Part shown: positions 17,377-37,812 of the stretch, piece after piece | Position numbering within the stretch: position 1 is the first letter of the stretch | Layout: every line of letters begins with the position of its first letter | Virus record (IMG/VR): IMGVR_UViG_3300024999_000038 | Coordinates: 86,269 to 150,268 of that record | Strand: one strand, 5' to 3' | Source: a virus | DNA length: 64,000 bases | Notes under the pieces: model-generated | Databases searched by the model: none | What the model was told of the DNA's origin: nothing | Seen by the model: the letters and a program-made list of their open reading frames with translations, nothing else | Made by a program: the position numbers and the translations under genes

Positions 17377-17892
17377 ATGAAATCAACAGGTATTATTAGG
17401 AGAATAGATGACTTAGGAAGGGTAGTAATTCTTAAAGAAATTAGACGAACTTTAAGGATTCATGAAGGAGATCCAATGGAATTATGTGTGCATGAAGGTG
17501 GAGTATTTTTAAAGAAGTATTCTGCATTAGGTGAAATGATAGATTATGCTCAAAACTTTGCTGATACATTATTTGAACAAACTGGCCATATTGCTTTAAT
17601 TTGTGATAGCGATGTTGTAATTGCTGTATCTGGAACGTCAAAAAGAGATTTTTTAAATAAACCAATTTGGAATTTAGCATCTAAAGCAATGGAAGAAAGA
17701 TTAACATTAACTGGCCTTAAAGATGGAATACAAGAAGAATTTGAATATGAAAATCAAATTGTTACACCAGTAATTTGTGAAGGTGATGTAGTAGGAGCAA
17801 TAGGGTTAGTAGCGAAAGAAGAAGTTGGAATTGTAGAACAAAAACTAGTTCAATCTGTTGCAAGATTTTTAGCGAAACAAATGGGACAATAA
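17377..17892 (+). CDS. spoVT: SpoVT-like transcription factor (AbrB DNA-binding domain plus GAF domain)
   Basis: MKSTGIIRRIDDLGRVVILKEIRRTLRIHEGDPME, LKKYS, LICDSDVVIAVSG, PVICEGDVVGAI, ARFLAKQM; 171 aa. Confidence 0.9.
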   Translation: MKSTGIIRRIDDLGRVVILKEIRRTLRIHEGDPMELCVHEGGVFLKKYSALGEMIDYAQNFADTLFEQTGHIALICDSDVVIAVSGTSKRDFLNKPIWNLASKAMEERLTLTGLKDGIQEEFEYENQIVTPVICEGDVVGAIGLVAKEEVGIVEQKLVQSVARFLAKQMGQ

Positions 17893-28058: not shown

Positions 28059-28490
28059 ATGCAAGTAGTAAATAAAGTTGCACAACATAATCAACCACAA
28101 CAATTTAATAGAGGAGACATTTACTTAGCTACAGTTGAAAATAATGTCGGAGGGTCAGTGCAAAATATTTGTCAGAGACCAATGATTATAATTTCAAATC
28201 CTATGAGTTTACTGCACTCGCCTGTGATTCACGCAATTCCATTATCTTCTAAGACTTTTAAGCGATGGATTCCAACTCACGTTTCTGTACCTATGGCTAG
28301 TAGTGGTTTATTAAAGGATTCAATTGCACTTTGCGAACAAGTAATGTTGCTCCCGAAAGAGGTTTTTAGTAAAAAAATTGGCACATGCAGTAGTTTAATT
28401 GTAAACAAATTAGAAGAGGGTTTAATGGTACAATTCGGGTTGTTTAATCATAGTCAAAATGTAAGAAACAATGTTGCTTATGCAAATTAA
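28059..28490 (+). CDS. MazF/PemK family protein (orphan, divergent)
   Basis: RGDIYLA, QRPMIIISN, IPLSS, PTHVSV, GLLKDSIALCEQV align with B. subtilis NdoA/EndoA motifs; no MazE upstream. Confidence 0.88.
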   Translation: MQVVNKVAQHNQPQQFNRGDIYLATVENNVGGSVQNICQRPMIIISNPMSLLHSPVIHAIPLSSKTFKRWIPTHVSVPMASSGLLKDSIALCEQVMLLPKEVFSKKIGTCSSLIVNKLEEGLMVQFGLFNHSQNVRNNVAYAN

Positions 28491-28512: not shown

Positions 28513-30111
28513 TTGGGGAAAATGAAAACTACAGAACAGTATAGACAAGATTTAGAAGAATACAATTTAAAATATAATACAAAAATAGAGTTAAAGAATG
28601 GAGTTGAATATAATGGTGCTAATACTAAAATATTACATATTTGTTCGTGTGGTAAAGAGTGGTTAGTTTCACCTTCAGGCGTTATAAATAGTAGTTCGAA
28701 AACAAGTTGTGGTTATACGTTTGCAGAAAAAGGAATCGATAATCTAGGGTATAATTTTTTAGAAAAATATTGGGATTATAAAACAAATAACGAATTAGGA
28801 ATTGATCCTTGGAAAATTAGTTGTAGTTCTGGAAAAGAAGTTTATATATTTTGCCAAGAGAAAGATTATCATGGAAGTTATAAAGTACGTTGTGCTGATT
28901 TTAGTAATGGAAACAGGTGTGGTTATTGTCAAGGATACTATTTGGTTCATCCTTTAGATAGTTATGGACAGTATTTAATTGATTCATTTGGAATAACCGC
29001 ACTAGAACTGTATTGGGATTATAATATAAACACTGTTGATCCTTGGAAGATTACAAAACAATCAAATAAGATGGTATATATTAAATGTCAGAGGAAATAT
29101 TATCATGGAAGTTATGGCATCAGGTGCAATGATTTTATAAAAGGAGATAGATGTGGATATTGTGGAGGTAAAAAAGTACATCTATTAGATAGTCTAGGAA
29201 CGTTACATCCAAAATCACTAGAATTATGGTCAAATATAAACGAAAAATCCCCATATGAATATATGCCTGGGAGCGATATGGAGGTTTGGTTTAAATGTGA
29301 CAACAAGAGACATGAAGATTACCAAAAAAGAATATATAATGCAGTAAACTGTAATTTTGGATGTCCGACATGTTCACAAGAACAAAAAGAATCTATCATG
29401 GCCTCCACACTAAAACAAGTACTAAGATATGAATATAGTCACACAAAATGGGAATATGATGCAGGATTTAAAATAGATAATAGTATTAGTAGGTATGATA
29501 TTTATGTTCCAGAATTGAATAACTTATTAATAGAATGCCAAAGTGAATATCACGATGATGAAAAACATATTATTAACGATCAACTTAAAAAACAGTTTGC
29601 TATTGATAATGGATATGAATATATAGCAATAGACAAAAGAGATTTTTCCATAATAGAAATACTAAGGTTCTTTATACCATACATGGATAAAATTCCTGAT
29701 TATGTACAATTAAATAAAAATACTACAAGAGGTTGGGATATAGAAAACGCTCAAAAATTGTTAGATAGTGGTCATACATATATAAATATAGCTAATATAT
29801 TAGAAACATCAGTTACCGCGATACGTGCAAGTGTAGGAGACAATGGGTTAATCAAACCAAATAATTATACTTTTCAAGGTGAAAATATTGTTTGTCTGTC
29901 TATGGATAATAGTTTAATAAAAACATATAATTCTTGCAGTTCTGCCGCCAAAGATTTAGGAAAAGCAAATGGAACAAGTATTAGTTCATGTCTAACTAAG
30001 AAGCCTCGTTCAGACACAGGGAAAATTCGTGAAACAGCTTTTGGTTTTAAATGGATGTATTTAGTAGATTATGAAAATATGATTAAAGATCAAAATAATA
30101 AACCTCCGTAA
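28513..30111 (+). CDS. Putative homing endonuclease: zinc-ribbon repeats, PD-(D/E)xK nuclease, NUMOD1-like tail
   Basis: Three repeats of WDY..N..DPWKI...C...YHGSY..RC.DF..G.RCGYC; YDIYVPELNNLLIECQSEYH; C-terminal YNSCSSAAKDLG...TAFGFKWMY. Confidence 0.75.
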   Translation: MGKMKTTEQYRQDLEEYNLKYNTKIELKNGVEYNGANTKILHICSCGKEWLVSPSGVINSSSKTSCGYTFAEKGIDNLGYNFLEKYWDYKTNNELGIDPWKISCSSGKEVYIFCQEKDYHGSYKVRCADFSNGNRCGYCQGYYLVHPLDSYGQYLIDSFGITALELYWDYNINTVDPWKITKQSNKMVYIKCQRKYYHGSYGIRCNDFIKGDRCGYCGGKKVHLLDSLGTLHPKSLELWSNINEKSPYEYMPGSDMEVWFKCDNKRHEDYQKRIYNAVNCNFGCPTCSQEQKESIMASTLKQVLRYEYSHTKWEYDAGFKIDNSISRYDIYVPELNNLLIECQSEYHDDEKHIINDQLKKQFAIDNGYEYIAIDKRDFSIIEILRFFIPYMDKIPDYVQLNKNTTRGWDIENAQKLLDSGHTYINIANILETSVTAIRASVGDNGLIKPNNYTFQGENIVCLSMDNSLIKTYNSCSSAAKDLGKANGTSISSCLTKKPRSDTGKIRETAFGFKWMYLVDYENMIKDQNNKPP

Positions 30112-30162
30112 TCAATACATAAATTCTAATAATAAATAATAAAAGGAGAGATAATATAATAA

Positions 30163-30780
30163 ATGGTTGAAACATTAATATTTAGTCTGCTGTGTCTAAA
30201 AACAAAATTTGATCTAAAACTAGGCAAACTCCAAATACATAAAGAATCATACCTAATAAAACCAATGCTAAAAAGATGGAGCATCTATCCTGTAATATTT
30301 ATGTCAATATTCTATGTCTATCTACAATACACAATAATGAATCAGAATTACTATTTTCTTCAATATCAACACATAATAAAGAATGCTATATTAGGTTCAT
30401 ATATGATTCTAGGGCTTGATGTTTTGTTTAGGCATGAAAAGTATAAAGAGTATATTATAGCCTGTTGTAGTCTCTTGTGTGGCTTTACATTGAATAAGAT
30501 TGTAATGCATTTCAATAATAATCTCATGCCAATCTTCCCATCAATATCTTATTCAACAGGTTACACGCAATATGGTATGATTACGAATGCTTCTAAATTT
30601 AGCGATTTTCATGTTCTCGGAGATCATACAACAAGATTGATATTTTTGGCCGATGTGTTTGATATAGGTGGTAGCATTTGGTCGGTCGGGGATATTTTAG
30701 TTAGATTATTTGCTTTTATAATTGTGTATTATGCGGGTAAAGTAGTTAGTAAAATGCATACGAACAAAATATTGAATTAA
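30163..30780 (+). CDS. DUF5317-like membrane protein
   Basis: GFTLNKIVMHFNNNLMPI and HVL...TRLIFLADVFD...SVGDIL motifs; several hydrophobic helices. Confidence 0.7.
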   Translation: MVETLIFSLLCLKTKFDLKLGKLQIHKESYLIKPMLKRWSIYPVIFMSIFYVYLQYTIMNQNYYFLQYQHIIKNAILGSYMILGLDVLFRHEKYKEYIIACCSLLCGFTLNKIVMHFNNNLMPIFPSISYSTGYTQYGMITNASKFSDFHVLGDHTTRLIFLADVFDIGGSIWSVGDILVRLFAFIIVYYAGKVVSKMHTNKILN

Positions 30781-30796
30781 TAAATAAATATAAAGC

Positions 30797-30825
30797 TTGC
30801 ATTACACTCTTACATATGGTATACT
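30797..30825 (+). promoter_or_regulatory. sigmaA-like promoter for receptor-1/agrD
   Basis: TTGCAT-17 bp-TATACT with extended TG. Confidence 0.7.
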
Positions 30826-30865
30826 TGTTTTAGATTAAGAAACGAATAAGAAAGAGGTAATACAT

Positions 30866-31687
30866 ATGCAGAGTGTAACAAATGCTTTGTTGAATACAGT
30901 ATTTGTAAGTTTACCAGAGGAAACATTTTACGCAATGATGACATTGATATTTTTGAAAAGATATGATCTATTAGATTTTAGAATGTGGAAAGAAAACATT
31001 ACAACACTTATGATACCTATAATTCCAGTATCAATATTAATTAATATATTTAGATATATTATAATTATAGATAAAATACAAATGATGATTATTACAATAG
31101 TGATATTTTACATATTGTTATTATATATTGTTATAAAATATAAAGTTGAAGATATTGAAAGAATACATATGAAAGTTTTATTAAACTTAGCATATAGCGT
31201 AGCAATATGGGTGTTCTTAGAAGAGATAACCTATCCATCATTATTGTTTTTGATGAATTACCCACTCGAATTTATATCAAATAATATATTTTGGAATTTT
31301 ATTTTAAGTGTTCCTTCAAGGATAATTGCTATGGTTATAATAATATACAACATAGTTAAAAATAGTAACGAAATAAGCAATATAGAAGTTCTTGACGTCA
31401 TTACTAATAATAAACTTTATCGAAGAATAATGCTTTTCTGCACAATGTCATTTATTTTATTATCATTATTCTTAATTAAACTTATTTGGTGTAATAAAAT
31501 ATTTGACAATAAGGTTCCTTTGTTTGAAAAGATTATTATTACTGAATCGCTTTTTGTTTTGCCAGTAGTTGTAATATTCCTAATAATTATATTAATCAAC
31601 AATCTTCTTGTAAAAGAAAAACAAATACAACAGTCTTATGAAAATCTTGTTATGCAAGACGACATAATGCTTGATGTAGAAGATTGA
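30866..31687 (+). CDS. Polytopic membrane protein, putative kinase-less peptide receptor 1
   Basis: About 7 hydrophobic segments; directly upstream of the agrD-like gene; ends EKQIQQSYENLVMQDDIMLDVED with no HisKA/HATPase; paralog of 33689-34552. Confidence 0.6.
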   Translation: MQSVTNALLNTVFVSLPEETFYAMMTLIFLKRYDLLDFRMWKENITTLMIPIIPVSILINIFRYIIIIDKIQMMIITIVIFYILLLYIVIKYKVEDIERIHMKVLLNLAYSVAIWVFLEEITYPSLLFLMNYPLEFISNNIFWNFILSVPSRIIAMVIIIYNIVKNSNEISNIEVLDVITNNKLYRRIMLFCTMSFILLSLFLIKLIWCNKIFDNKVPLFEKIIITESLFVLPVVVIFLIIILINNLLVKEKQIQQSYENLVMQDDIMLDVED

Positions 31688-31709
31688 TATGAAAGGAGGT
31701 GAAAAATTA

Positions 31710-31826
31710 ATGAAAAAGTACGCAATTATCGCTGGAGTGGTTGCTTTGTCAGCCGCAATGTTCTCAAATGTATTTGCTTCTATGTTCTTTTCTCATCAAC
31801 CAAAAACTCCTAATTGCATGAAATAA
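31710..31826 (+). CDS. agrD: AgrD-like cyclic lactone autoinducer propeptide, 38 aa (MKKYAIIAGVVALSAAMFSNVFASMFFSHQPKTPNCMK); not in the ORF track
   Basis: Strong RBS GAAAGGAGGTG; hydrophobic leader; x-x-F-F-x-HQP-K-x-P motif as in clostridial AgrD (CLWFT|HQPEEP, CPWII|HQPKVP); agrB 1 kb downstream. Confidence 0.88.
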   Translation: MKKYAIIAGVVALSAAMFSNVFASMFFSHQPKTPNCMK

Positions 31827-31838
31827 TTTTACCATACA

Positions 31839-31868
31839 TATAGGGAAGGACTTCGGTTCTTCCCTATA
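31839..31868 (+). terminator. Hairpin after agrD with cUUCGg tetraloop
   Basis: TATAGGGAAGGAC-TTCG-GTTCTTCCCTATA, 13-bp stem with one G-U. Confidence 0.8.
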
Positions 31869-31908
31869 AATCTAATATAAAATATTTTATAAATTTACTA
31901 AAAATCTA

Positions 31909-31936
31909 TTGACATATCTCCCAAATATGGTAAGAT
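31909..31936 (+). promoter_or_regulatory. sigmaA-like promoter for HTH-MazF/agrB
   Basis: TTGACA-16 bp-TAAGAT with extended TG. Confidence 0.65.
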
Positions 31937-32003
31937 GTATTTAATGAAGTTGTAAATAAATTATATATACATCATTATAAATTGAAAAGGGAGTTGTGTT
32001 ATT

Positions 32004-32792
32004 ATGTTTGAAAAATTTATTGGTAAAAAAGAGAGTACTATTACTGAGGAGAATACAAAAAAGGATTTCAAAAAGTTGGCTACATATGTTACTTTAGCCA
32101 AAGGCCCAAGAACTATTAATGGATTCGCAGCAGACTGCAAAACAAATGCTGACTATCTAGCTGATATTATCCATGTAAAAATCAATTCTTATCCTCAAGT
32201 TCAATTTCTGAAAATAATATCTGAAAATTCACAAGGCAGAGTTTCATTAGATGATCTTAAATTATCTTGTGGATATTCTTTATATGAACATAATGATATG
32301 GAGCAAATAAAAAATATTAATGTTCGCAGAGGATGGTTTTGTTACGTAAATCTAGGCCAAGTTTTGGACTCGGAATATGGGGGAAATCGAATGTGTTTGG
32401 TAGTGCAAAACGACGTAGGGAATCATTTCTCAAGCACATCAATTATTTTACCATTGACTTCTAGAAAATCAAAAGTAAAGCTTCCTACTCACGTCGAAGT
32501 TGGAATAAAAAATTGCGGATTACCGCAAGATTCGATTGTTAGTTGTGAGCAAATTCGTTGCGTATCGAAAAGGAGACTTATTCAAAATGGAATAGTCCAG
32601 AAAGTATCAGAATGTCCTCCAGATGTAATGTTAAAGGTAGAGGTGGCTTTATTAAAAGCACAAGGAGTTATACATCTTAAAATGAATGAACAGGAAGCTA
32701 TTCAGCACTTAATGAACATGAATACCCAAAAAACATACCAGTATCAAAATAATTATGCTAGTGCAGGACAGCAGGTGGCCTATGCACGATAA
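32004..32792 (+). CDS. XRE-like HTH fused to a MazF/PemK endoribonuclease domain
   Basis: N-terminal AKGPRTINGFAADC...YLADII..P...LKIISENSQGRVSLDDLK..CGY HTH-like segment; C-terminal RRG, SEYGGNR, QNDVGNHFS, PLTS, KLPTHVEV, DSIVSCEQIRCVSKRRL with catalytic Arg and Thr positions retained. Confidence 0.85.
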   Translation: MFEKFIGKKESTITEENTKKDFKKLATYVTLAKGPRTINGFAADCKTNADYLADIIHVKINSYPQVQFLKIISENSQGRVSLDDLKLSCGYSLYEHNDMEQIKNINVRRGWFCYVNLGQVLDSEYGGNRMCLVVQNDVGNHFSSTSIILPLTSRKSKVKLPTHVEVGIKNCGLPQDSIVSCEQIRCVSKRRLIQNGIVQKVSECPPDVMLKVEVALLKAQGVIHLKMNEQEAIQHLMNMNTQKTYQYQNNYASAGQQVAYAR

Positions 32793-32808
32793 AAGAAAGG
32801 AAGATTAA

Positions 32809-33516
32809 ATGTTTTCAGTTCAAGATATTTCTGATCAATTGGCTACTAAACTATCAAAAAAAATATCATTAGATAAATTTAAAGAAGTTTGGGGGATCGT
32901 TATAAAAATATTCCCATCACTTGCTGATAAGCTTAATCTTGAACAAATAAAATCAATAAATGACTTATTAGGTTTATATAGTTATGGGATAACGGTATTT
33001 GTAGGATTACTATTCAAAGGCCCATTATTGATTATAATATCAATTATCTTTGGAATATTTACACCAATTATGTTTGTGGTAACCACATTTTCAAGTTTTA
33101 GGGTTGTAGCAGGTGGTTACCATATGCAGACATATTTAAGGTGTTGGATTGTAAGTTTTGTCACATTTATTGGATCTGCACTTATAGTCCAACACACACT
33201 TCAATATTGGTCTACCCAAAATATCTCTTCACTCTTCATATTTTGTATTTTAATGGGATTATATATAATTTTTAGATATATTCCTCGCGACACACCCAAT
33301 AAGCCAATTACAGAGCCATTGGAGATAGCAAAGTTTAAAAAATGGTCGTTATACTACTTAATTTCATGGGTAACAATAATGACCATTTTCTTATTCTTTA
33401 ATCTAAAATTAATTGTTATTTCAAGTTGTTTTGGATTATTATTGGAATTATTTTCAATAAGTAAAATTGGTTATAGTCTATATTCCCTTGTAGATGATAT
33501 TGGTATACATAAATAA
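32809..33516 (+). CDS. agrB: AgrB family peptide-processing membrane cysteine peptidase
   Basis: YSYG, FRVVAGGYHMQTYLRC (catalytic His/Cys), PRDTPNKPI; multiple TM helices. Confidence 0.93.
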   Translation: MFSVQDISDQLATKLSKKISLDKFKEVWGIVIKIFPSLADKLNLEQIKSINDLLGLYSYGITVFVGLLFKGPLLIIISIIFGIFTPIMFVVTTFSSFRVVAGGYHMQTYLRCWIVSFVTFIGSALIVQHTLQYWSTQNISSLFIFCILMGLYIIFRYIPRDTPNKPITEPLEIAKFKKWSLYYLISWVTIMTIFLFFNLKLIVISSCFGLLLELFSISKIGYSLYSLVDDIGIHK

Positions 33517-33688
33517 TATCTCACAAACCACCTTACTATCCCACCTTATCCCATAATTGCAATACTTTATTCAATTTATTTTTCCAACATTTATGATATA
33601 TTTACAGCAACAAGTAATAGCACATAATAACTGCCCCTTACTCAAACCACACCCACAAACTAAATAAAAAGAAGGAAGGAAACCCTAT

Positions 33689-34552
33689 ATGTCTATTACC
33701 AATGCTGTACTAAATCTACTATTTGTCTCCATCCCAGAAGAAGCATTTATAGCAATAATAGCTATAACATTCCTAAATAAACTAGATAATCTTTTCGATA
33801 TCTATATGTGGAAGAACAATCTCAAATGGCTTATGATAGCAACATTGCCCACATCAATATTAATTTGTGTTTTACGATTTGTAATGTCTGTTCCCCAAAA
33901 TATTGTAGTAAAATTAGCCATAATTATAATGATTGCTTCAATGATATACATAGTAATTAAAAACTCTGACAAAATTACTATTCTATTAATATTTAAAACA
34001 GCAATGTTTACATTAGCAGGATTTGTAATTACAGGAATATTGGAATACTCATATTGCCCAATAATATTCTCATTATTACATAAACCACAAGAATTTTTTA
34101 ATAATGTTTTCCTCTATAATTTTCTATTAGGTTTACCTGCAAGAGTCCTTTACACCTGTATTATCACTTTTATCATAATGAAGAAAAATGGCAAAGTTAA
34201 AGTAAATTTATTTGATACTTTAGTCAAAAGCAAATTAATCATTGGTATTTTCATTGCTACAATATTATCTGTAGTTTCATTAATTGCCTATGTTGCTAAA
34301 TTGATAGAAAATGAAAGCATTTTGTTTAGTTTTCAATTCATTGATCAATTTATTATCATTGTAATAATCACATCTGTACCAACTATTTTAATCACATTGT
34401 TATTGATAGTTATTAATTATTTAATATCAGGTGAGAAGGAAAATCAGCAAATGTACGAGAATGCTATGGGTAGTAGGGATGAGAATGAGGATATAAATGA
34501 GGATGGTAATAATAGTAGCGATGAAGATATTTATGAAAATTATTATGAATAA
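33689..34552 (+). CDS. Polytopic membrane protein, putative kinase-less peptide receptor 2
   Basis: Paralog of 30866-31687 (S.TNA.LN..FVS.PEE.F, D..MWK.N, LE...Y.P, N...NF.L..P.R, EK..QQ.YEN); highly acidic C-terminal tail; no kinase domain. Confidence 0.6.
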   Translation: MSITNAVLNLLFVSIPEEAFIAIIAITFLNKLDNLFDIYMWKNNLKWLMIATLPTSILICVLRFVMSVPQNIVVKLAIIIMIASMIYIVIKNSDKITILLIFKTAMFTLAGFVITGILEYSYCPIIFSLLHKPQEFFNNVFLYNFLLGLPARVLYTCIITFIIMKKNGKVKVNLFDTLVKSKLIIGIFIATILSVVSLIAYVAKLIENESILFSFQFIDQFIIIVIITSVPTILITLLLIVINYLISGEKENQQMYENAMGSRDENEDINEDGNNSSDEDIYENYYE

Positions 34553-34723
34553 TTATTATAAATAGGAGGCGATAATAATGCTCTAAAAATAGTTCCAAAG
34601 CACTAAGACTATTGACCTATATCAAATGGCAATATTCCTATTCTAATAAATAAATAAGATAAAACAATGTCGAAAAACCGAACATAACATCCCAAAATAA
34701 CATAATTATTGGTAATTTTGTTC

Positions 34724-34752
34724 TTGATTCTTGAACAAATGTTCTATATAAT
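34724..34752 (+). promoter_or_regulatory. sigmaA promoter with a Firmicutes LexA (Cheo) box in its spacer
   Basis: TTGATT(34724)-17 bp-TATAAT(34747); GAAC-AAAT-GTTC at 34733-34744. Confidence 0.72.
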
Positions 34753-34833
34753 AATATCAAGGAGGTATTGAAAGAACAAAGATATAATTTGTTGAATATC
34801 CAAATATTAGAAAATAAAGGAGAGATTTTAAAT

Positions 34834-35241
34834 ATGAATTGTATTAAAACAGAAGACAATGTGAGATATACATGGGCCATCAAAGATTCAAAAGGTAATT
34901 TTGCCCATAAGGGCAGTATACGTAAAATCAATAAAGATACTTGGCAATACATATCGTTTAAGACATTCTCCCAAGAAGCTAGGGGATACACATCCAAGGA
35001 ATCTGCTGAAAAAGCATTGGCTTTCTTAAATAAAAAGAATGACATTGCAGGATTCAAATTTGTTTTTCATATTGAGTGTCTTAACTTAAATAAAATAATT
35101 GATGAAAACACCATATTCCAAGGTAAAAATATGCTTATATATGAAAAAGAAGTGGTATCAGCTGCTTATAAAATGGGAAAAGTGGCAAAAACATGTGTCT
35201 GTACATGTTTACCAACTCTAATATTAGCCAGTATAATTTAA
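34834..35241 (+). CDS. Hypothetical protein under a putative SOS-controlled promoter (candidate antirepressor/inducer)
   Basis: RBS AAAGGAG before ATG 34834 (the track start TTG 34768 has only about 2 nt SD spacing); no known domain recognised. Confidence 0.5.
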   Translation: MNCIKTEDNVRYTWAIKDSKGNFAHKGSIRKINKDTWQYISFKTFSQEARGYTSKESAEKALAFLNKKNDIAGFKFVFHIECLNLNKIIDENTIFQGKNMLIYEKEVVSAAYKMGKVAKTCVCTCLPTLILASII

Positions 35242-35381: not shown

Positions 35382-36752
35382 ATGCTTAAAGAAAAATCGG
35401 TTGCACTCATGAGGGAACTAAATGTGTTAATTAAGAAGTATAGTTCAAACGACAAGGTAAGAAAATTAATTGTAGAAGAATTTGATAAAAGAAATATGAA
35501 GGGCAGTTTAGCGGTCGGCATCTTAAATGAAAATAGAGAGCTATCCACATTAGATATTGATGAAAGCAAAGATGTAATAATGTTATTTATTTTCACTATG
35601 AGTATGTATAATGCATTGACATATAAAGAGGAAGAAGATAAAGAGGCGTTGGGAGAAATTGAAGAAGGGTTAAGAATTGATCCTAAAAATTATTTTACTG
35701 AAATTGAAATTGAAAACCTAAATGACTATAAGTTTGAAAAGAAAATAGACAAAAAAGACGAAGTTATTATTTTCCCCAAAATGAGTAGAATTGCCCCTGA
35801 TTTCTTTTCAGGCTATATGTCAGGAAAGCATTTTGCAGAATTAGATGCAGGAAATGAATTTATCTATAATTTTAAGACTCAGCGTGACCCAATTATTGAT
35901 GTATCTGGAATGAAGAGGATACATTTAAATAAAACAAATGCAAAAGAAATTAGAGATGGCCTAATCTCAAAGAATCAATTCCCAACTACCATAGTAGTAA
36001 ATGTTCTTAAAGACGGTGAAGACGAGATATATTATGATGAGAAAACAGGCGATTTGTCTATTATTTCAGGTACTAAAAACCTTGTTGATGGAATGCATAG
36101 AAAAGTTGGTAATAGTTTGGCTCTCGCTATTGATCCAGACTTGGAGTTTAATTGGTTATTAGTTGTAACAAACTATAGTGAAATTAGAGCACAAAAATAT
36201 ATGGTGGAAATTAACAAGCAACAAAAAATGAAACAAGAACATATTAAAAATATGGATACTGCCAGTCTTGGAAATATTGTTGTTGATGTTATTAAAGATA
36301 TCAATAGTTCTGAATTTGCTGGACATATCAAAGATAGCGACAAGGAATTAGAACATGGAGGTTTAACTAGGAAGTCAATTTTAACTTTAGCAATTGAGGA
36401 AATATACAAAGATAAACTTGAAAACAAAACATTCATAAAACCTATCGCCAACCACATTACAAACGTTATGGATCATATTATTGCATTGAGAGTTGATGAG
36501 TTTATGAAATATCCTGAAGCCACACGTAAAGTAAGCTATATCAACCACAAGAATATGTTTGCAGGATATGTAGCTTTATCTGAGAGACTATATGGAGTTG
36601 AAAAATGGGATGACCTCCTTGAGGAAATTTTAGATAAAATTGATTTCAGTATGAAAAATTCTTTTTGGGAAGATATTGGATTGGGCAAAGAGTCCGATAT
36701 GAAGAAAACTACACGAAACAATCTATACGAATTCTTTCAAAAATTAATTTAA
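35382..36752 (+). CDS. SPbeta YopQ (SroE)-like protein with a DGQHR/DndB-like ParB-Srx domain
   Basis: RIDPKNYFTEIEI, IYNFKTQR, LNKTNAKEIRD, LVDGMHR and TNYSEIRAQ match the YopQ pattern as I recall it; about 460 aa; upstream of the YopR-like gene. Confidence 0.75.
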   Translation: MLKEKSVALMRELNVLIKKYSSNDKVRKLIVEEFDKRNMKGSLAVGILNENRELSTLDIDESKDVIMLFIFTMSMYNALTYKEEEDKEALGEIEEGLRIDPKNYFTEIEIENLNDYKFEKKIDKKDEVIIFPKMSRIAPDFFSGYMSGKHFAELDAGNEFIYNFKTQRDPIIDVSGMKRIHLNKTNAKEIRDGLISKNQFPTTIVVNVLKDGEDEIYYDEKTGDLSIISGTKNLVDGMHRKVGNSLALAIDPDLEFNWLLVVTNYSEIRAQKYMVEINKQQKMKQEHIKNMDTASLGNIVVDVIKDINSSEFAGHIKDSDKELEHGGLTRKSILTLAIEEIYKDKLENKTFIKPIANHITNVMDHIIALRVDEFMKYPEATRKVSYINHKNMFAGYVALSERLYGVEKWDDLLEEILDKIDFSMKNSFWEDIGLGKESDMKKTTRNNLYEFFQKLI

Positions 36753-36768
36753 CAAAGGAGACTTTAAA

Positions 36769-37812
36769 ATGACTAAAAATGAAATCATTGATGAAACTAA
36801 AATCCAAGAAGTCGAAGAAAAATTAATGTTTGAAGTTGATCCTGAAGTTAAGGAAGAATTTTTAGAAAAGCAATTAAAATCAACTAGAAGTTATTATCGG
36901 TATATTTTAAAACTTGCCGATGAATTTGAAGTTAAATTAGGAAAACCAATTTACAATTTCAATACTGAAGAAAGAGATGAGTTATTGACTGTTCAATATA
37001 AAAACAAAAATATATTTGCATTTCAAACTGTTTTGTCTCCATTAAAAACTTATGTTGATTTTTGTATATCTCCTAAGAATTTAGTACGACACAATGAAAA
37101 TCGCTTTAGTAGTATCCTTACTTCAAACTACAAAGTTTATATCAGTAAACAAGCAAAAGAAAATTCTTATATCCCTTTATCTGAATGTAGAGAATTTCAA
37201 TCTAAATTAGCGAATTATCAAGACATGTTAATTCTTGAATTGCCAAATCTAGGAGTTAGAGGTCGTACTGAAAAAGGAAATACTCTTGAGGAACTGGTTA
37301 ATCTAAGGGAAAAAGATATTGAATGGGAGAAAAAGAGATTACATCTTACCAAAAACAATGGTGAAGAAAGATGGATTGAAGTTGATGATTACACTTTAGA
37401 TTTACTCAAGAAAACCATCAATCAAGATTTTTATATATCCAATAATGGATTAAAGACAAAACCGAACGACGATGGGGTATATGAACGTACAGAAAGGGGA
37501 AGAATGATTAATAAAACTGAATATGTATTTAGAATTCCAGGTAAGAATAAACATGGTAAGGTTGAATACCAATTTTTTGCTAGTAGAATCCAACGTATTC
37601 AAAAATGGTTAGGTAAACCGTATATTAGCATTAGTAATCTGTATTTTTCTGCTATTATAGAATACTCAAAGAAACTAAAAGAAGAGAAAGGTGAATTGAT
37701 TAGAGAAGATTATATTTCAATCAATCAAAGATTTGAATTTGGAGAAGATGGTGAGAAATATGTCTTTAAAACTAGAGAGCTTGTTGAATCATATCTTGAC
37801 GATGAGAGGTAA
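36769..37812 (+). CDS. SPbeta YopR (SroF/MrpR)-like repressor with tyrosine-recombinase fold
   Basis: EVKEEFL, E..LGKPIYNF, LKTYVDFCI, LANYQDMLILEL..GVRG, EELVNL, NG.ERWIEV, Y...NG; canonical HxxR motif absent. Confidence 0.78.
   Translation: MTKNEIIDETKIQEVEEKLMFEVDPEVKEEFLEKQLKSTRSYYRYILKLADEFEVKLGKPIYNFNTEERDELLTVQYKNKNIFAFQTVLSPLKTYVDFCISPKNLVRHNENRFSSILTSNYKVYISKQAKENSYIPLSECREFQSKLANYQDMLILELPNLGVRGRTEKGNTLEELVNLREKDIEWEKKRLHLTKNNGEERWIEVDDYTLDLLKKTINQDFYISNNGLKTKPNDDGVYERTERGRMINKTEYVFRIPGKNKHGKVEYQFFASRIQRIQKWLGKPYISISNLYFSAIIEYSKKLKEEKGELIREDYISINQRFEFGEDGEKYVFKTRELVESYLDDER

Follow-up and report, generated by a model that had tools for sequence, protein, structure and literature searches.

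A phage protein that joins a predicted XRE-type helix-turn-helix (HTH) domain to a MazF-type endoribonuclease domain belongs, as a constant and co-inherited member, to an agr-type peptide cassette carried by phages, and that cassette contains neither an AgrC kinase nor an AgrA regulator. The gene for this protein, which we refer to as the HTH-MazF fusion, occupies positions 32004–32792 on the plus strand of a 64,000-nucleotide stretch of DNA (hereafter, the window) and encodes 262 amino acids followed by a stop codon. The window comprises positions 86,269 to 150,268, that is, the terminal 64 kb, of the 150,268-bp IMG/VR phage record IMGVR_UViG_3300024999_000038. The cassette consists of four genes in the order membrane protein (with approximately seven transmembrane segments), agrD, HTH-MazF and agrB, and the stop codon of the fusion is separated from the start of agrB (position 32809) by 16 nucleotides. 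As judged from its sequence and predicted structure, the fusion is a two-domain protein in which an XRE-type DNA-binding domain is connected by a conserved linker to a MazF-type endoribonuclease with an intact active site.

Domain architecture of the HTH-MazF fusion

The protein can be divided into four parts: a divergent XRE-type HTH, a conserved linker, a MazF/EndoA domain and a C-terminal extension. More than 50 full-length homologs, all metagenomic and displaying 49–82% identity, were recovered, and residue conservation was read from an alignment of 60 fusions that included 51 close and nine distant sequences. Mean pairwise identity is highest in the linker (76%), followed by the HTH (68%) and the MazF domain (58%). 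Structural comparisons were made with an AlphaFold2 model calculated from a 54-sequence alignment (predicted local distance difference test score, or pLDDT, of 84 and predicted template modeling score, or pTM, of 0.59; the pLDDT without an alignment was 31). Literature on HTH-MazF fusions, or on agrB together with MazF/PemK in phages, contained no description of this architecture.

The MazF/PemK endoribonuclease domain (residues 107–220; positions 32322–32663) is identified by its sequence, by matches to solved structures and by its predicted fold. It matches the Pfam family PemK_toxin (PF02452) across residues 109–217 with an E-value of 3.2e-22 and a score of 79.2 bits (curated threshold, 23.1). 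The nearest solved structures are those of Bacillus subtilis YdcE/EndoA, Bacillus anthracis MoxT and Staphylococcus aureus MazF, with E-values of about 1e-21 and approximately 40% identity (PDB entries 1ne8 and 4mdx are matched at 1e-21). The B. subtilis and S. aureus enzymes are type II toxins with UACAU-specific ribonuclease (RNase) activity, and known MazF proteins consist of a single domain and are paired with MazE. The predicted model of the fusion displays the SH3-like barrel of the MazF/CcdB fold, with target-normalized template modeling scores of 0.90–0.93 in Foldseek and, upon superposition of this predicted model with VIA, a Z-score of 18.5 and a root-mean-square deviation of 1.9 over 115 aligned residues.

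In an alignment with B. subtilis MazF/EndoA, R129 and T152 of the fusion fall on the catalytic residues R25 and T48. Across the 60 fusions R129 is invariant and position 152 is either T or S; D122, S123, E124, N136, G139, N140, S177, E182, K189 and R191 are conserved as well. Because the catalytic and RNA-binding residues are retained in this manner, the RNase site is under selection, and the domain is predicted to be a sequence-specific endoribonuclease. Positions 183 and 185 (equivalent to Q79 and R81 of B. subtilis MazF) vary within the family, and the sub-lineages may accordingly prefer different substrates. The PHROG family phrog_1412, which is named ‘antitoxin mazE-like’, also matches the protein at residues 92–192; since that match falls on the MazF domain, the family name looks misleading.

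According to profile searches and the structural model, the N-terminal region is an XRE-type HTH domain (residues ∼14–90; positions 32043–32273). The fusion's own N-terminal ∼105 residues matched no Pfam HTH family, including HTH_3 and HTH_19, at E ≤ 0.1. A profile built from residues 1–104 of 12 loci, searched against 1.8 billion representative proteins at E ≤ 0.001, matched 267 proteins; 50 of these were sampled, among which 27 contain HTH_3, 10 HTH_26, nine HTH_19 and five PemK, with a LexA-type S24 peptidase domain (Peptidase_S24) in three. The model places five helices in this region (residues 20–33, 38–45, 49–56, 66–74 and 82–89). Comparison of residues 13–93 with known structures in VIA-align returned matches that are nearly all XRE regulators or antitoxins, with Z-scores of 7–9.7 that are moderate for small helical domains. 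The best match was 2ofy (Z-score of 9.7 over 76 aligned residues), and others included C.AhdI, SinR, ImmR, the P22 c2 and 434 repressors, HigA, HipB and ComR. A profile search of the PDB with the N-terminal domain also gave the ATfaRel2 antitoxin, at a sub-threshold E-value of 0.3, and this match was not used.

The two domains are connected by the most conserved segment of the protein, a 16-residue linker (residues 91–106; positions 32274–32321; consensus GYSxYxxNDMEQIKNI) with S92, Y94, N97, D98 and I102 invariant. This linker is a candidate cis-inhibitory segment. Beyond the MazF domain, the model places an extra helix (residues 229–239) and a disordered tail that ends in QQVAYAR (the extension as a whole spans positions 32664–32789). 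A terminal motif, [NQ]-V-A-[YF]-A(-x), is common to the fusion family and to a short stand-alone MazF paralog encoded nearby; the C-terminal ends of the MazF paralogs in the window and in related loci (L003–L013) read NNVAYAN, QQVAYAR and RQVAFA. The motif resembles the transfer-messenger RNA tag (ANDNLALAA) of the metagenome-assembled genome (MAG) of a putative Clostridium host, and more speculatively may act as an ssrA-like degron that makes these MazF proteins short-lived.

The initial annotation of this locus had placed the open reading frame at 32004–32792, 16 nucleotides before agrB, and both the coordinates and the gap were reproduced exactly. It had described the first ∼105 residues as XRE-like while allowing that they might have no HTH fold, and the profile and structural matches bear out the former. 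The catalytic Arg (GGNR), the Thr (PLTS) and the EQIR.VSK.RL motif to which it drew attention are all readable (as R129, T152 and EQIRCVSKRRL). Of the two functions it had offered, that of a dual DNA-binding and RNase protein is favored, whereas a catalytically dead domain serving as a mere dimerization scaffold is disfavored because the active site is kept throughout the 60 fusions. It had further suggested that the fusion stands in for AgrA, a part in which it would receive the peptide signal, and that it could interact with host MazE or MazF.

Linkage and co-divergence of the fusion with agr genes

We compared the cassette across a syntenic set of 11 related phage loci and six further distinct loci (L016, L017, L018, L021, L023, L025, L027/28 and L029, with fusions 28–39% identical), for a total of 17; the distant fusion clusters were reached either via the HTH profile or via the membrane protein. 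The membrane protein adjoins the fusion in all 17 loci, an AgrD-like peptide is encoded in 16 (the exception being L017) and agrB in 14; no AgrB was found within the 1.6–5 kb of the short contigs L016–L018. The 11 related phages share the order short MazF, (homing endonuclease), DUF5317, membrane protein, AgrD, HTH-MazF and AgrB, which continues on the 3′ side with an optional second membrane-protein paralog, a DndB-like gene and an MrpR-like gene. In one locus the order is permuted to AgrB, DUF5317, membrane protein, AgrD and fusion, and two distant loci have ordinary tyrosine integrases as neighbors in place of the DndB/MrpR pair.

Across the 11 syntenic loci, the membrane protein, AgrD, the fusion and AgrB are correlated with one another in their pairwise identities (Spearman 0.67–0.81). 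The same comparison of cassette genes with outsiders gave correlations of approximately 0 for the short MazF, 0.30–0.37 for DUF5317 and at most 0.32 for DndB/MrpR, and the divergence of DndB and MrpR from each other is itself correlated (0.86). Since the identities of the four cassette genes rise and fall together and those of the flanking genes do not, these four genes move as one block in mosaic phages, and the short MazF is a neighbor that lies outside that co-inherited block. Together these comparisons establish a new conserved four-gene module, no member of which other than the fusion is predicted to bind nucleic acids.

The architecture is essentially phage-borne, since the full fusion is present in just two of 296 Clostridiaceae-family species genomes, both times on a small phage-like contig. 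A pattern scan of GTDB species genomes similarly returned one locus, on a phage-like contig in a Clostridium MAG. A stand-alone MazF is encoded by 267 of the 296 genomes and matches only the MazF part of the fusion (E-value of approximately 1e-35), a sequence similarity by which the MazF domain resembles host MazF. The phage record itself is estimated to be ∼71% complete and carries nearly all of its genes on the plus strand. The stretch was found in groundwater metagenome runs from a single study, the sequencing-run look-up listed no RNA runs that contain it, and a megablast search of positions 30000–35000 against the phage collection gave no match.

Neither a cognate type II antitoxin nor the agr two-component system accompanies the fusion. 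No MazE/AbrB or ribbon-helix-helix gene adjoins it, and the record contains a single AbrB-type domain, that of a SpoVT homolog encoded 14 kb upstream. In the phage record we found no AgrC-type ATPase domain (HATPase_c_5), and a search for LytTR returned only a sub-threshold fragment (16 bits); HATPase_c, LytTR and Response_reg were likewise absent from five relatives, one of them complete. That complete relative (166,652 bp, with terminal repeats) carries two PemK genes and no MazE/AbrB-type domain. The initial annotation had reported no antitoxin reading frame next to the fusion, in agreement with these searches, and had left room for the fusion being unassociated with agr loci elsewhere; agr genes are tied to it in every other lineage examined. 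The SpoVT homolog (positions 17377–17892) combines an AbrB-type N-domain with SpoVT_C (E-value of 9e-33) and corresponds to a sporulation transcription factor.

Genes surrounding the fusion

All of the genes described here lie on the plus strand. The membrane protein (positions 30866–31687) is 273 residues long, with approximately seven transmembrane segments by hydropathy, an acidic cytoplasmic tail and no kinase. Members of its family range only from 250 to 297 residues, the acidic character of the tail is conserved, and profile searches recovered no kinase-fused form. The protein has no Pfam match, and a search of 25 family members at E ≤ 5 gave nothing recurrent, with neither CPBP/Abi nor 5TM-LYT among the matches. 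Five invariant polar residues (E18, D37, E119, N144 and R152) lie in or beside predicted membrane segments; the family alignment contains no conserved His and no EExxxR, the motifs of CPBP/Abi proteins. The membrane protein could be a kinase-less receptor or a maturation or export factor. Its neighbor cluster in a language-model comparison is auto-named ‘sensory transduction kinase’, which we treat as a lead only, and a complex prediction that combined two copies of fusion residues 90–262 with membrane-tail residues 243–273 gave a score of 0.00 that, having been run with no controls, speaks neither for nor against binding. A second paralog, 32% identical to the first, is encoded at positions 33689–34552 and is present in only some relatives. 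A distant cellular homolog (L020; E-value of 3e-29) is encoded on the 4.3-Mb chromosome of a spore-forming bacterium, flanked on one side by rex and on the other by mazG-yabP-yabQ-divIC, a cluster for sporulation and division; no agr genes are nearby.

The agrD propeptide gene (positions 31689–31826) is a 45-residue open reading frame with a likely start at the ATG at 31710 (MKKYAII...), and matches the AgrD model TIGR04223 with 22 bits (cut-off of 19). Its product contains the ring SMFFS followed by HQPKTP. A ring followed by (H/N/Y)QPxxP is found in 16 loci, and the tail QPKTPxC is conserved. The ring itself is strongly diverse, reading SMFFS, SWLFS, SYFWT, SWFFA, SAMWT and others in the related phages and CWVWI, SFLYF, CRGFF, SWWVF, SIWWL, SAFLW and SYVLF in the distant loci; Ser is commoner than Cys at the ring-closing position, and the tail is constant. 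The agrB gene (positions 32809–33516) encodes a 235-residue AgrD-processing membrane peptidase (Pfam AgrB, PF04647; E-value of 4.7e-35).

The short stand-alone MazF paralog (positions 28059–28490; 143 residues; Pfam PemK E-value of 6e-15) keeps the catalytic Arg, has a Ser in place of the Thr, and displays a degenerate SEQGG loop. On the other side of the cassette, genes for a DndB-like protein and an MrpR(YopR)-like protein of recombinase fold occupy positions 35382–37812 (identified by Pfam DndB and a PHROG integrase family), and orthologs of the MrpR-like gene in relatives carry the MrpR_N_CB and MrpR_C_cat domains. An SPbeta-type DndB/MrpR repressor operon is thus located directly downstream of the cassette in a Clostridium-type phage; MrpR/YopR is the master repressor of SPbeta (PMC10516654). 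Between the short MazF and DUF5317 the window carries a 532-residue homing-endonuclease-like gene (positions 28513–30111; DUF4379 zinc fingers and NUMOD1) that is found at that site in only some relatives (the window, L006 and L013), and a DUF7487 gene occupies the equivalent spot in L027/L028.

Regulatory DNA within the cassette

A promoter of its own had been proposed for the fusion from the outset, and the corresponding site, TTGACA-16-TAAGAT with an extended TG (positions 31909–31936), stands up to comparison: its TTGACAT box is near-invariant in 13 homologous intergenic regions, with a −10 element 16–18 nucleotides away. In a promoter and terminator scan across the region as a whole, such sites were no commoner than chance. 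The spacer between agrD and the fusion also contains an inverted repeat, AAGATAT...ATATCTT, the window version of which reads AAGATGTAT...ATACATC (positions 31925–31976). Its left arm overlaps the −10 element and its right arm is located 35–45 nucleotides downstream, just before the ribosome-binding site; as an RNAalifold stem, the repeat is accompanied by a few compensatory changes. This repeat may serve as a pair of operator sites or may form an RNA stem in read-through transcripts. An inverted-repeat search of the module's other intergenic regions revealed no shared operator motif.

A conserved GC-rich hairpin with a UUCG-type loop follows agrD (positions 31839–31868; an inverted repeat that is 92% complementary), and its stem is kept by RNAalifold with compensatory changes; it is not called a terminator because it has no U-tract. 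Right after the agrD stop codon and before the hairpin, TACAT (UACAU in RNA) is present in 11 of 13 loci at a position that shifts between them (positions 31827–31868 in the window), and may be a processing site. Elsewhere in base composition, CCWGG is strongly under-represented in the whole phage record (five CCTGG observed against 23.5 expected, and 11 CCAGG against 28.6), which suggests avoidance of a Dcm/EcoRII-type restriction site.

Possible roles of the fusion

The most economical reading, in a judgement that is evenly balanced, is that the fusion acts in the cytoplasm as the regulator or effector of a phage agr-type cassette that lacks a kinase. The protein would dimerize via its MazF fold and bind DNA with its two HTH domains, at a target that would include at least its own conserved promoter, which would also drive agrB, and it may still cleave RNA at specific sequences, which would give it a second output. 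The output of the cassette is probably the lysis-lysogeny decision, given that the cassette lies directly upstream of the SPbeta-like DndB/MrpR repressor operon; a role of this kind is also made plausible by the arbitrium system of phage phi3T, which acts on lysis-lysogeny through host MazF (PMC10769878). DNA binding, RNase activity, dimerization, coupling to a peptide signal and the link to lysogeny are all properties that we infer for the fusion from sequence and its context.

Several observations weigh against assigning the fusion this role. The recognition helix of its HTH is rather acidic, and the arms of the promoter inverted repeat are ∼35–45 nucleotides apart, an atypical spacing for the operator of a dimeric HTH protein, which could instead reflect an RNA stem. 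TACAT is undepleted on the phage coding strand (295 observed versus 260 expected), so that an active UACAU-specific RNase would cut phage transcripts too. The membrane protein displays no detectable homology to AgrC sensors and might instead act in maturation or export, which would leave the cassette with peptide production alone. The co-divergence, finally, rests on 11 related phages that provide 55 non-independent pairs.

A more far-reaching form of the same proposal, which we consider possible but doubtful, is a new phage pathway in which a cyclic peptide made by AgrB (a Ser-lactone or Cys-thiolactone) would act on the membrane protein as a kinase-less sensor with seven transmembrane segments, and the HTH-MazF fusion would in turn switch transcription, cut RNAs and set lysis or lysogeny. 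In SPbeta-like phages of Clostridia, such a pathway would take over the function of arbitrium, and the sensor would pass its signal without phosphorylation, through sequestration, release or proteolysis.

The main rival to a role in signaling, which we judge unlikely, is that the fusion represents a single-chain type II toxin-antitoxin system, in which the HTH and linker would autoregulate the promoter and hold MazF inactive until it is triggered by proteolysis, superinfection or loss of the phage. Its purpose would then be addiction, abortive infection or superinfection exclusion, and its location among agr genes would be incidental. XRE HTH domains are common in antitoxins, HigA and HipB are among the structural matches of this one, the active site is intact, there is no separate antitoxin gene, and the succession of a DNA-binding domain and then a toxin mirrors the gene order of type II operons; the exceptional conservation of the linker is compatible with such a system although not diagnostic of it. 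Toxin-antitoxin modules, however, usually move independently, whereas the divergence of the fusion tracks that of agrD, agrB and the membrane protein, whose neighbor it remains in rearranged contexts. The putative antitoxin part is moreover the slower-evolving of the two, the reverse of the usual pattern, and the short MazF paralog has neither such an N-terminal part nor an antitoxin. This explanation and a role as cassette regulator are partly compatible, as a signal could release the inhibition.

Quite unlikely, in our view, is that the phage MazF domain manipulates host MazEF, either by binding host MazE or by forming mixed dimers with host MazF, with the HTH setting its expression. The presence of a matching stand-alone MazF in 267 of 296 Clostridiaceae-family genomes makes it likely that a cognate-like host MazE is present, and there is precedent in phi3T, whose proteins bind MazF or MazE and so steer lysis-lysogeny (PMC10769878). 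A decoy would need neither the catalytic Arg and Thr nor the RNA-binding residues, but all 60 fusions retain both sets. Nor would a decoy account for the close linkage of the fusion to the membrane protein and AgrD.

An improbable alternative, which we place lower still, is that the cassette makes a peptide only, addressed to agr- or VirSR-type receptors of the host, with the membrane protein acting as an MroQ-like factor in a second step of maturation or export and the fusion as a local repressor of agrB that receives no signal. The MAG of the putative host itself contains three further AgrB genes, the second processing step of AgrD in S. aureus requires the membrane protease MroQ (PMC9388083), and the invariant polar residues of the membrane family would suit an enzyme. 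That family is nonetheless without CPBP/Abi motifs or a Pfam match, and the AgrD rings diversify together with the membrane protein, as is typical of private signal-receptor pairs. Least probable is an RRNPP-like intracellular receptor in which the MazF groove that normally accommodates the MazE tail would bind an AgrD-derived peptide (either the C-terminal fragment left by cleavage or peptide imported back into the cell) and switch the HTH: the layout of an XRE HTH and a peptide-binding domain recalls ComR (itself among the HTH matches), PlcR and AimR, and the AgrD tail QPKTPxC is conserved, but agr peptides are normally sensed extracellularly and the conserved membrane partner would be unnecessary.

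Comparison with known systems

The MazF domain of the fusion resembles B. subtilis MazF/EndoA (YdcE) and S. aureus MazF over its whole length, with ∼40% identity, the same fold, the catalytic Arg and Thr, and the S/E/S/E/K/R RNA-binding positions all kept. It differs from those proteins in the addition of the XRE HTH, the conserved linker and a 45-residue C-terminal extension, in having no mazE gene, and in being encoded by a phage within an agr cassette. Single-chain fused toxin-antitoxins such as CapRel-SJ46 and EzeT, and the XRE antitoxins HigA, HipB and MqsA, share with it an XRE HTH placed N-terminal to a toxin function and the possibility of autoregulation or neutralization in cis. None of the fused systems in the literature searched joins an XRE domain to MazF, and linkage to a signaling cassette is not a feature of theirs. 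RRNPP receptors (ComR, PlcR, Rgg and AimR) likewise combine an XRE HTH with a second domain and are encoded beside a small signaling propeptide; in the fusion that second domain is a MazF barrel rather than TPR repeats, and the associated peptide is AgrD-like and matured by AgrB.

Among phage systems, the Clostridioides difficile phage phiCDHM1 carries agrB, agrD and agrC (PMC3901668). It shares with the cassette described here a phage AgrB and AgrD without AgrA, and differs in that it has an AgrC histidine kinase, in place of which we find the kinase-less membrane protein and the HTH-MazF fusion. The arbitrium system (AimR-AimP-AimX) of SPbeta-like Bacillus phages is similar in that its peptide module adjoins an MrpR/YopR-type repressor operon and that a MazF-family RNase belongs to the same decision circuit, likenesses that suggest positional and functional equivalence. 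It relies on a linear hexapeptide imported by Opp, whereas the peptide here is predicted to be cyclic and processed by AgrB; the present cassette has no AimR/TPR receptor, and its MazF homologs are encoded by the phage, with one of them fused to an HTH. The literature searched contained no description of an agr cassette of this composition.

Significance

Peptide communication by phages has so far involved arbitrium and other RRNPP systems, or receptors borrowed from the host. In the cassette described here, the AgrC/AgrA pair has been lost, and in its place are found a membrane protein whose family is unknown and a MazF with a predicted DNA-binding domain, a pattern shared by many divergent phages. 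Should the fusion indeed be the output of the cassette, it would represent a new coupling of a cyclic-peptide signal to gene expression, with a MazF RNase that forms part of a transcription factor instead of being restrained by an antitoxin, and it would add to phi3T a second, independent example of a MazF-family enzyme in a phage lysis-lysogeny circuit. Even on a modest reading, the locus adds a new four-gene module and a new domain architecture for MazF.

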